This document shows, one piece after another, positions 15,195 to 17,096 of a DNA stretch of 64,000 nucleotides. Position numbers and translations under genes: made by a program. The stretch spans positions 12,976-76,975 of the forward strand of contig CAYGNG010000005.1 of the NCBI GenBank assembly GCA_964351225.1, written 5' to 3'. The number at the start of each line of letters is the position of its first letter. Within the stretch, counting starts at the first letter, position 1. The notes beneath the pieces were generated by a model. It ran no database searches. It had not been told where the DNA came from and was given only the letters and a program-made list of their open reading frames with translations. This DNA is from an uncultured Gammaproteobacteria bacterium (lineage in GTDB: Bacteria > Pseudomonadota > Gammaproteobacteria > CAYGNG01).

Positions 15195-17048
15195 ATGGGC
15201 ATTCGGTATATCAACGGAAAAAGGTTGCGCTATGCGATTTTAGCAGGTTCTGAGCGTGTCATTCAAAACCAAGAGCACCTCAATAAAATCAATGTCTATC
15301 CAGTGCCCGATGGCGATACGGGCACCAATATGGCGTCGACGCTCGCTCACATTTCTCATGGCACCTTAGAGTTAAAAGAGCCCTGCTTACCCTCCCTGAG
15401 TGCCTCGATTGCTGATTCAGCACTCAGTGGTGCCCGAGGCAACTCCGGTGCTATCATCGCACAATTTTTCCAAGGGCTAGCCGAAGCCGTCGGCAATAAA
15501 AGAAGAATTGACTTAAAACAATTTTCAGAAGCCATTGACTATGCCACTCAAAAATCCAAACAAGCGGTTGCCAATCCGGTGGATGGCACCATCATCACCG
15601 TCATGGCTGATTGGGCGCTGTGGATTAAAACCCACTGGGAGAGCACCGATAGTTTTGAAAGCTTACTCGAAGAATCTTTAACGGTTGCCAAGTGCTCGCT
15701 CAAAAACACCACCAATCAATTAGATAATTTAGCCAAAGCGAATGTGGTTGACGCCGGCGCCCAAGGCTTTGTCAATTTCTTAGAGGGTGTCGTAGGCGCC
15801 ATCCATCACGGCAAACTCAAAAAAATGCGCTTTCGCACCCAGTTAGCGAAAAGTTTTTCATTAGATAAAATCCAACAAATCGAAGCATCACACCAACACA
15901 GCTCTGAAGTTAATGCGCAATCATTGCAGACAGGCGATTTAAATTATCAATATTGCACTGAGTGCATCATTCAAGGTAAAAAAATCGATGTCAACAACAT
16001 TCGAGCAATTCTGAAAGAGTGGGGTGACTCACAAGTCGTTATCTCCGGCAATCACAAAGTAAAAATTCACATTCACACCAACGACCCGAATCGCTTATTT
16101 AAAGCCATGGGCAAATTTGGTGAAGTCGTTGGGATCAAGTTTGATGACATGTGGGCACAATACCGCAATTGCATTGGTTGGTACAACAGCAGAGAAATTG
16201 CGGTCATCACAGACACGGCTTGCTCTATTCCACAAGAGAGCATCGTTAAATACAATATCCATTTAATTCCGCTGCAAGTCACTACTCAAAGAGCAACCTA
16301 TCTCGACCGAATTAATTTAGATAGTGATGTATTCTATGACGCACTCGATAACGACGATAAACCCATCACGACCTCACAACCTCTACCCATGGATATCACT
16401 AATATCTATAGCAAAGTCAGCCAAGTGGCGGGTTCCGCTATTGTCTTCACGATATCAGGCAACATGAGTGGGACCTACCAATCGGCACAGCACCTAGCAA
16501 AAAATTACAGTGATTATGCCATTGAAGTCATCGATACCAACAATATTTCCTGTGGCCAAGGTATTATTGTGCAGTTAACCGTTGAAGCCATTCACTCGGG
16601 CATTTCAAGAGAAGAGCTCAAACGATTGATCCCTAAATGGATTAAAAACACCACCACTTTTTGTGCGCCACGCACCATGAAAAATTTAGTCCGTGGAGGA
16701 AGAATAAGCAAGCACTCCGGCTTTGTTGCACAATTACTAAATCTATTACCCCTTATTTCGGTCGACAGTCATAGCCAAGGCAAACCACAAAAGAAATTCT
16801 TGCTGTTTGGTAAATATTTTCTACATCGCAAACTCATCAAAGAAATTGTGGCACTTTCGGCTAACCGTCGTAATGTTCGCATCGTGATAGCCCATGCCCT
16901 AGCACCCGAGGACGCGGAGCGTGTCCGCCAAGAAATTATGCGCCAAACTGGGATCCGCGACATCCCCATCACACTGGCCTCTCCCGCTTTAACCGCTCAT
17001 GTCGGCAGAGGCACCGTATCAGCAGCTATTTACGGAGAACCGTATTAG
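15195..17048 (+). CDS. DAK2 (Dak phosphatase-like, FakA-type) domain fused to C-terminal DegV (FakB-type fatty-acid-binding) domain; start chosen at MGIRYING (ORF extends to 15150)
   Basis: N-terminus NVYPVPDGDTGTNM is the DAK2-domain signature; C-terminal half (AVITDTACSIP…ISGNMSGTYQSA…) matches DegV family. Confidence 0.8.
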   Translation: MGIRYINGKRLRYAILAGSERVIQNQEHLNKINVYPVPDGDTGTNMASTLAHISHGTLELKEPCLPSLSASIADSALSGARGNSGAIIAQFFQGLAEAVGNKRRIDLKQFSEAIDYATQKSKQAVANPVDGTIITVMADWALWIKTHWESTDSFESLLEESLTVAKCSLKNTTNQLDNLAKANVVDAGAQGFVNFLEGVVGAIHHGKLKKMRFRTQLAKSFSLDKIQQIEASHQHSSEVNAQSLQTGDLNYQYCTECIIQGKKIDVNNIRAILKEWGDSQVVISGNHKVKIHIHTNDPNRLFKAMGKFGEVVGIKFDDMWAQYRNCIGWYNSREIAVITDTACSIPQESIVKYNIHLIPLQVTTQRATYLDRINLDSDVFYDALDNDDKPITTSQPLPMDITNIYSKVSQVAGSAIVFTISGNMSGTYQSAQHLAKNYSDYAIEVIDTNNISCGQGIIVQLTVEAIHSGISREELKRLIPKWIKNTTTFCAPRTMKNLVRGGRISKHSGFVAQLLNLLPLISVDSHSQGKPQKKFLLFGKYFLHRKLIKEIVALSANRRNVRIVIAHALAPEDAERVRQEIMRQTGIRDIPITLASPALTAHVGRGTVSAAIYGEPY

Positions 17049-17096
17049 GGTCTGTTGACAATTACTTTTTCGGCTGCAAATGTCAACAGGACCTAA
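17046..17096. repeat. Palindromic MITE/REP-like element, copy 2; its terminal TAG is the stop codon of the DAK2-DegV gene
   Basis: tagggtctgttgacaattactttttcggctgcaaatgtcaacaggacctaa; between convergent genes. Confidence 0.85.

Follow-up and report, generated by a model that had tools for sequence, protein, structure and literature searches.

A 50-nucleotide palindromic repeat that ends genes in an uncultured gammaproteobacterium is probably a minimal transposon with IS427-type ends

In a 64,000-nucleotide stretch of DNA from an uncultured Gammaproteobacteria bacterium (contig CAYGNG010000005.1 of assembly GCA_964351225.1, positions 12,976 to 76,975; referred to below as the window), a 50-nucleotide (nt) palindrome is present six times, and in four of these copies the terminal TAG or TAA of the palindrome is at the same time the stop codon of the adjacent gene. 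How does a dispersed repeat come to end four genes, among them mreB and gatA? A first-pass annotation of the window had offered two readings, namely, (a) that the element inserts at or near TA(G/A) stop codons or (b) that insertions into the 3′ ends of genes recruited the element's own TAG as a new stop, thereby altering the C termini of proteins such as MreB and GatA. The analysis reported here supports the former reading, while the latter is not supported for these genes. We consider it highly probable that the repeat represents a minimal non-autonomous transposon, i.e., a miniature inverted-repeat transposable element (MITE), with ends of the IS427 type (IS, insertion sequence), which has become lodged at stop codons through the targeting of TA dinucleotides.

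Anatomy of the repeat and its position at stop codons

The consensus of the palindrome is TA-GGGCCTGTTGACATTTGC-AGCCGAAAAA-GCAATTGTCAACAGGCCC-TA, in which two TA dinucleotides enclose a 46-nt core composed of two terminal inverted repeats (arms) of ~20 nt and a 10-nt spacer. Each copy deviates from this consensus by 1 to 7 substitutions, TA is found at both termini in five of the six, and 86% of the stem cells are paired over all six copies. The 50-nt element has no coding capacity, and in either orientation only one of its three frames is free of stops. A degenerate pattern of the core matched four of the copies in the window (G+C content of 44.5%), where none would be expected in shuffled sequence. 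Searches for copies and relatives were performed with blastn-short and nhmmer, using a profile built from the six window copies; the profile retrieved no extra full copy from the 64-kb window, and the 11 kb added by the Logan contigs of ERR3534985 (L001, L084, and L085) yielded no new copy. All six copies in the window are singletons, with no dimers or clusters of the kind formed by bacterial interspersed mosaic elements (BIMEs).

The ends of the four open reading frames (ORFs) concerned coincide exactly with the element termini, as had been claimed, and all four represent real genes on the basis of their Pfam matches. Copy 2 (positions 17046 to 17095, minus strand) supplies the TAG (17046 to 17048, the proximal TA plus G) of a fakA-degV fusion gene (15150 to 17048, plus strand; Pfam Dak2, FakA_M, and DegV), while its distal TA (17094 to 17095) forms, together with A17096, a displaced in-frame TAA, 7 nt beyond which the convergent ORF 17103-18008 stops. 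Copy 3 (40529 to 40578, plus strand), which is closest to the consensus, provides the TAG (40529 to 40531) of an spmB-like gene (39989 to 40531, plus strand; Pfam Gate), and its distal TA with G40579 constitutes a displaced in-frame TAG ahead of the stop of the convergent tldD at 40592. Copy 5 (48290 to 48339, minus strand), with seven substitutions, carries the CTA (48337 to 48339 on the plus strand) that is the TAG stop of mreB (48337 to 49374, minus strand; Pfam MreB_Mbl); its distal TA has mutated to GA (plus strand), and the old stop consequently reads TCA, which a single substitution separates from a stop codon. Finally, copy 6 (51247 to 51296, plus strand), whose first G is now an A, furnishes the TAA (51247 to 51249) of gatA (49795 to 51249, plus strand; Pfam Amidase/GatA), the ORF of which was listed as 49702 to 51249 with a likely start near 49795. 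Its distal TA with A51297 forms a displaced in-frame TAA, behind which lie the ribosome-binding site of gatB and the start of that gene at 51318.

The remaining two copies required correction of earlier assignments. Copy 1 (13807 to 13857, minus strand; 51 nt owing to one extra base) is non-coding and is located 24 nt past the 3′ end of the RNase P RNA gene (13882 to 14220, minus strand; Rfam RF00010, 340 bits) and 37 nt upstream of a second neighbor, ORF 13278-13769 (minus strand); the ORF at 13875 to 14312 (plus strand) is spurious because it overlaps this RNA gene. Copy 4 (45953 to 46002, plus strand), which had been regarded as intergenic, instead lies in frame within yhdP and is discussed below. 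All five non-coding copies are thus positioned directly 3′ of a gene, if the RNase P RNA gene is included.

The earlier suspicion that four of six copies at stop codons would be unlikely by chance proved correct, as the probability of at least four of six is ~2 × 10⁻⁷ relative to all TA dinucleotides of the window, and the stop-codon excess is real. When only TAs outside coding sequence are admitted (38 in stop codons and ~260 intergenic), the probability of at least four of five is 0.001, rising to 0.0025 to 0.004 when a Y-or-R or full YTAR context is demanded (Y, pyrimidine; R, purine). Were the tolerated TAs to comprise the 54 within 30 nt 3′ of a gene plus the 38 in stop codons, a hand calculation gives a probability of ~0.1.

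Two further observations concern the copies as such. A possible solitary arm, TAGGTGCTGTTGACAATT (31716 to 31733, plus strand), is a weak match (nhmmer E = 0.09) between rpoN and hpf, directly 5′ of the hpf ribosome-binding site. Furthermore, contig L001 of ERR3534985 begins within copy 6, spans the diverged copy 5, and ends 32 nt past copy 4, and the better-conserved copies seem to break short-read assembly.

Protein ends and empty sites in relatives

Comparison with homologs, which had been suggested as a check, bears directly on the second of the two readings. The C terminus of MreB is unaltered, its last residues (GGDFLSTE) being identical in 36 of the 120 best homologs, and the top-ranked homologs listed all end at the aligned position; SpmB, with 180 amino acids, is of the same length as its ortholog in relative L077. 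These two proteins retain their native ends exactly, and the tails of the other two are natural in length. GatA continues for nine residues (TAIPALFIK) after a conserved WH, compared to nine in L082 and L083, seven in L079, 13 in L081, and seven in the Pseudomonas aeruginosa GatA (4WJ3), while FakA-DegV ends two residues past the commonest end, within a range of −2 to +7 among 49 homologs.

Insertion just inside the 3′ ends of these genes, with the TAG of the element acting as a new stop and the proteins being shortened or changed, could still be argued from the GatA and FakA-DegV tails, which are identical to those of no relative, and from two loci of the wider superfamily described below. 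Set against this are the identical MreB end, the equal SpmB length, and the natural range of the other two tails, together with the far ends of the copies, where TAA or TAG, or a triplet one base removed from these, is read in frame, as if the old stop had been the target. For the genes of the window we regard this scenario as most improbable, and what stands of it is the trivial sense in which the acting stop uses the first G of the element, with no sign of changed proteins.

The element is present at none of the orthologous sites in L076, L077, L079, L080, L082, and L083. These belong to the relatives used for comparison throughout (L076, L077/78, L079, L080/81, L082, and L083), whose MreB proteins are 93 to 97% identical to that of the window. 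In these relatives, mreB ends at the same codon, the sequence there being gag TAA, gaa TAA, gaa TAG, or, once, ata TGA, and the gatA stop is TAA. In addition, the native sequence after gatA in L079, TAAagaaaataacg...ATGgaatggga, has a similar counterpart beyond copy 6, TAAgaaaatcgagg...ATGgaatggga.

Frame arithmetic and the insertion within yhdP

If one of the two TA dinucleotides is counted as a target duplication, the net insert amounts to 48 nt, equivalent to 16 codons. The similarity of the arms makes the three reading frames identical from either end of the element. A TA occupying codon positions 1 and 2 leads to an immediate TAG; a TA at positions 2 and 3 opens the sole open frame, xTA GGG CCT GTT GAC ... 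GCC CTA; and in the third frame the TGA in cTGTTGAc is reached after three codons.

The copy within yhdP (42860 to 46720, minus strand) is read through in this sole open frame, where it adds 16 residues to a 1,286-residue ORF that is otherwise intact and matches Pfam YhdP over residues 3 to 1271. In alignments, YhdP of L080 and L083 shows a 15- to 16-column gap exactly over the element-encoded residues, and more distant homologs display a gap of 9 to 12 columns at the same place. Among the conceivable net inserts of 46, 48, 50, and 52 nt, the frame is kept by 48 nt only, which establishes a 2-bp duplication or something formally equivalent.

Terminal repeats shared with the IS427 group

ISAba31 of Acinetobacter is an 858-bp element which encodes a 248-residue IS4/5-type DDE transposase, generates a 2-bp target duplication, and has the terminal repeats GGGTGTGTTGACACTT and AAGTGTCAACAGACCC (PMC4776018). 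The window element has ISAba31-like arms, in that its arm GGGCCTGTTGACATTT matches the second ISAba31 repeat, GGGTCTGTTGACACTT, at 14 of 16 positions. Full ISAba31 copies were recovered by scanning viral contigs for the arm. That of contig L137 (8484 to 9341) is 858 bp long and flanked by C-TA ... TA-G, a C-TA-G context. Its 248-residue ORF matches NF033580 (IS5-family transposase, 264 bits), DUF4096, and DDE_Tnp_1, and the element is 99.2% identical to plasmid copies annotated as "IS5-like element ISAba31 family transposase." In the IS5 family, functional members of the IS427 group measure 830 to 865 bp and produce 2-bp duplications (PMC3281130).

The likeness of the window element to IS427-group ISs (ISAba31, IS1248, and ISPpa2) and the MITEs derived from them therefore resides in the repeats, the TA flanks, and the 2-bp duplication, whereas it differs in being just 50 nt long and non-coding, with essentially nothing between its repeats. 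Five properties by which MITEs are recognized are found, i.e., a small non-coding body, inverted repeats, a target duplication, dispersed copies that are absent from relatives, and repeats shared with an IS.

The arms also bear on a different origin, in which the repeat would be a GTAG-class repetitive extragenic palindromic (REP) sequence, moved by a REP-associated tyrosine transposase (RAYT; IS200/IS605-like) that inserts beside a short target without duplication. Such an origin would account for a small palindrome that lies mostly 3′ of genes; REP termini are known to supply TAG stops, and the G in front of copy 5 produces a GTAG. Likewise, GTAG-tagged REPs and Rickettsia palindromic elements are located preferentially between co-directional and convergent genes, with some copies in frame within ORFs (Di Nocera et al. 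2013). REPs are, however, RAYT-linked palindromes of 20 to 40 bp defined by a GTAG or CGTC tag that is unpaired and confined to one end. This defining feature is not found in the element, whose TAG is base paired and present at both ends. Moreover, the preceding base is T in most window arms and C or T in 36 of 41 relatives, not G; the element is 50 nt long with 20-bp arms and occurs singly in the window, not as dimers or BIME-like clusters; and its arms match the repeats of an IS with a DDE transposase. No Y1-transposase domain was detected among the ORFs of the window. A REP origin appears very unlikely, and affiliation with the IS427 group is preferred.

A wider superfamily in metagenomes

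Searches beyond the window separated the loop of the element from its arms. The loop motif TTTGCAGCCGAAARARYAAT gave 74 matches in the genome collection, all of them single, unrelated (mostly in Bacteroidota), and lacking the arms, and the loop motif of the window copies gave no match in the metagenome collection; on this sequence comparison, the loop appears to be specific to the source organism, the arms representing the conserved part. By contrast to the loop, the two-arm pattern TAGGNNCTGTTGAC-N18-24-GTCAACAGNNCCTA, when run on the metagenomes, retrieved 41 loci (L086 to L126) where fewer than one would be expected by our own estimate (24 specified bases). These loci span 36 to 70% G+C, and the elements they contain measure 46 to 52 nt and fall into several interior subfamilies. 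Their flanks show C or T before the left TA in 36 of 41 cases and G or A after the right TA in 37 of 41, which defines a YTAR target.

The association with stop codons is also encountered at these loci. TAGs at element ends terminate an ORF of 100 codons or more in 19 of 82 cases, versus 167 of 2,808 other TAGs at the same loci (Fisher p = 5 × 10⁻⁷), and at 14 of the 41 loci a Pfam-confirmed housekeeping gene ends at the element. These genes are unrelated to one another, encoding FdhD, PilZ, RNase T, a GreA-like protein, enoyl-CoA hydratase, formamidase, DsbA, PrpD, an HtrA-like protease, a redoxin, cytochrome c, and a methyltransferase. The relative L080, whose MreB is 94% identical, harbors a decayed copy (8641 to 8682) with the exact arm GTCAACAGGCCCTA, which supplies the TAG of lexA (8680 to 9294, minus strand). 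The stop-codon habit is accordingly a property of the superfamily and not of this window alone.

It is within this superfamily that an element-borne stop did change a protein, as envisaged under reading (b). In L091, a GAF-GGDEF-EAL protein (5964 to 8957) enters the element (8938 to 8985) in its open frame and ends ...PVVGSVDA*, the last five residues (GSVDA) being element encoded, while the old frame runs on past the element; to judge from this sequence, the element did replace the native C-terminal tail. The locus in L125 likewise favors a new stop, since the far TA is followed there by a base that makes TAT and not a stop codon.

A separate observation concerns Legionella pneumophila, for which two deletion primers of the lpg2920-21 region contain TTAGGGTCTGTTGAC (PMC12457610 primer list); this suggests that a family member or a parent IS may adjoin the lpg2920-21 toxin-antitoxin locus.

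A model for insertion at stop codons

On the basis of these findings, we propose that a cognate DDE transposase of the IS5/IS427 type, presumably encoded elsewhere in the genome, cuts at the terminal repeats and inserts the element at TA, favoring YTAR. Being TAR by definition, TAA and TAG stops would fit this target. Because G is the first base of the core, a stop codon whose TA receives the element would become gene-TA-GGG...CCC-TA-R, such that a TAG is regenerated at the exact position of the old stop and the old stop is shifted 48 nt downstream, in frame. Insertions elsewhere in genes would truncate or extend the protein and mostly be lost, and those in promoters and ribosome-binding sites would probably be lost too. 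In densely packed DNA, TAA and TAG codons make up a large share of the harmless TA sites, and the element would in consequence land on stops. At copies 2 and 3, the spacers between the convergent genes are reconstructed as having originally measured 6 and 12 nt, respectively, so that the TAs of the stop codons were among the few sites available there.

The observations that favor insertion at TA(G/A) stops are the TA ends, the 48-nt net insert, the YTAR flanks of the relatives, and the displaced stops, which remain readable in three of four cases. Target choice combined with selection against insertions in 5′ regulatory DNA can yield the stop-codon excess, which is best read as the product of target preference and of purifying selection against both coding and 5′ regulatory insertions.

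Several points weigh against this model. Target preference by itself leaves a probability of 0.001 to 0.004 for four of five copies and is thus insufficient, meaning that selection or another bias must be added. Within this genome, the conclusions and the stop-codon association rest on the six copies of the 64-kb window. A transposase gene is absent from the window and from the ~11 kb of adjoining Logan contig. The termini of the 41 metagenomic elements, TAGGGNCTGTTGAC, were set by the search pattern, and their conservation is in part by construction. Sequence alone cannot separate a TA duplication from a 48-nt element that inserts beside TA. Lastly, the relatives with empty sites are distant at the DNA level, their mreB genes being 76 to 80% identical and third positions ~48%; since the copies are only 1 to 7 substitutions away from their consensus, the insertions are much younger than the split from these relatives.

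Folding of the element and a possible role for its hairpin

The folding energies of copies 2, 3, and 4 lie between −22 and −29 kcal/mol (copy 3 at −29), with z scores of −3.9 to −6.1, while copies 1, 5, and 6 do not exceed shuffled sequence in stability (z about −1). Covariation was not observed in the stem across the six copies, 11 of 19 stem pairs departing from the consensus only by broken pairs. This pattern is that of decaying mobile DNA, although an intact hairpin may still affect the gene ahead of it. In copy 6, all four substitutions are located in the gene-proximal arm, next to the gatA stop, which hints, small as the number is, at selection against a hairpin at the stop or simply at age.

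It could nevertheless be that the hairpin is retained at stops for a function in RNA, such as protection of the 3′ end, adjustment of relative expression within mreBCD or gatCAB, or slowed termination of the kind ascribed to REPs within 15 nt of a stop in Escherichia coli, in which case selection for function rather than target choice would cause the excess; such a role is compatible with an origin as a MITE. The position of all five non-coding copies just behind a gene, be it for a protein or for RNase P RNA, the strong folding of copies 2, 3, and 4, and the residual probability of 0.001 to 0.004 left by target preference are in keeping with this possibility, and a REP less than 16 nt from a stop is stated to lower translation in E. 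coli (cited in a passage of PMC12306157). The lack of stem covariation argues against it, as do the copies that follow mreB and gatA, both essential genes, which fold like shuffled sequence, the presence of one copy within coding sequence, the fact that relatives manage without the element, and the want of terminator properties, in that no T-run is found and terminator-like sites are not enriched. We therefore consider a retained function unlikely, if less so than the REP origin discussed above.

A more restricted proposal, which we view as doubtful and put forward tentatively, is that the stop-codon association goes beyond passive target choice, in that a 20-bp hairpin starting at a stop codon may be retained at sites where it modulates termination, ribosome rescue, or 3′-end stability of the upstream gene and eroded at those where it does harm. 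If true, this would explain the decayed hairpins at mreB and gatA as well as the arm-biased substitutions of the gatA copy.

Other identities of the repeat were rejected. An intrinsic terminator is contradicted by the absence of a T-run after any copy, and terminator-like sites are not enriched in positions 40300 to 51600. Counts of promoter-like sites do not exceed those of shuffles. As for a structured RNA, the sole Rfam match in the window is the RNase P RNA at 13882 to 14220, and stem covariation is lacking. The element does not fit the consensus of an integron attC site, a LexA box, CIRCE, or dif. Cluster members P0028 and P0029 turned out to be unrelated 52-residue fragments.

Other features of the window and its relatives

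Each arm of the element contains TTGACA, a perfect −35 hexamer aimed into the element (for example, at 40538 to 40543), followed 17 nt later by a weak −10-like hexamer (AATTGT or AAATGT); in copy 4 (45962 to 45990), the arrangement is TTGCCA-17-AATTAT. On the basis of these motifs, outward transcription from the element is conceivable.

In L083, an rve-type integrase gene and an IS110-family transposase gene (1809 to 3065 and 5099 to 6118) lie beside gatB, and neither is present in the window. The closest named relatives of the window MreB are Legionellales metagenome-assembled genomes (MAGs). Three large ORFs without a Pfam match are situated among the housekeeping operons (18099 to 20285, 52833 to 56450, and 56551 to 59559, encoding 728, 1,205, and 1,002 residues, respectively), and orphan proteins of this kind are common in Legionellales MAGs. 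The last of these ORFs includes a CT-rich array with a 12-nt period (58913 to 59025), and ORF 17103-18008, also without a Pfam match, carries a 21-nt unit repeated approximately five times at 17349 to 17453. ORF 27318-28241 contains LptC and LptA/OstA (LptD_N) domains and is either a fusion or an over-extended ORF.

Relation to known repeats and implications

The element resembles several described families of small mobile repeats. According to the passages of PMC2229807 and PMC2759123 compared here, the Correia/NEMIS elements of Neisseria, ERIC/RU-1 of enterobacteria, and RUP of pneumococcus all possess inverted repeats with 5′-TA-3′ termini, a TA duplication, and a stable hairpin, and they are likewise intergenic or fused into ORFs when their frame is open. 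They differ in being 100 to 170 bp long and unrelated in sequence, with presumed parents in other families, such as IS630-Spn1, the proposed mobilizer of RUP (PMC2759123 and PMC2229807). Regeneration of a stop at the same position is not described for any of them in those passages. A strong hairpin at or near the upstream stop is likewise a feature of REP-mediated down-regulation (Liang, Rudd, and Deutscher 2015, as reported in a passage of PMC12306157); the hairpins at mreB and gatA have, in contrast, decayed. The literature searched contained no description of a 46- to 52-nt family with IS427-type ends and no explicit account of the arithmetic by which the stop is rebuilt. Both can be derived directly from the established behavior of transposons, and current understanding is not overturned.

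The model provides a mechanical account of why small palindromic repeats often "provide" stop codons. Because an element that starts with G and duplicates TA rebuilds TAG, a stop codon would serve as a safe harbor even in essential genes such as mreB and gatA. For annotation, a TAG stop followed by GGNCTGTTGAC would mark an insertion and not an ancestral stop, and for assembly, short-read contigs of the organism would be expected to break at the better-conserved copies. Elements of 46 to 52 nt with IS427-type ends are widespread in metagenomes and are easily taken for REPs or terminators. Should the tuning of termination tentatively proposed above prove true, this IS427-derived family would constitute a general mobile means of altering gene output while leaving the protein untouched. 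In genomes that carry such elements, gene ends and stop-codon usage would be shaped in part by the element itself.

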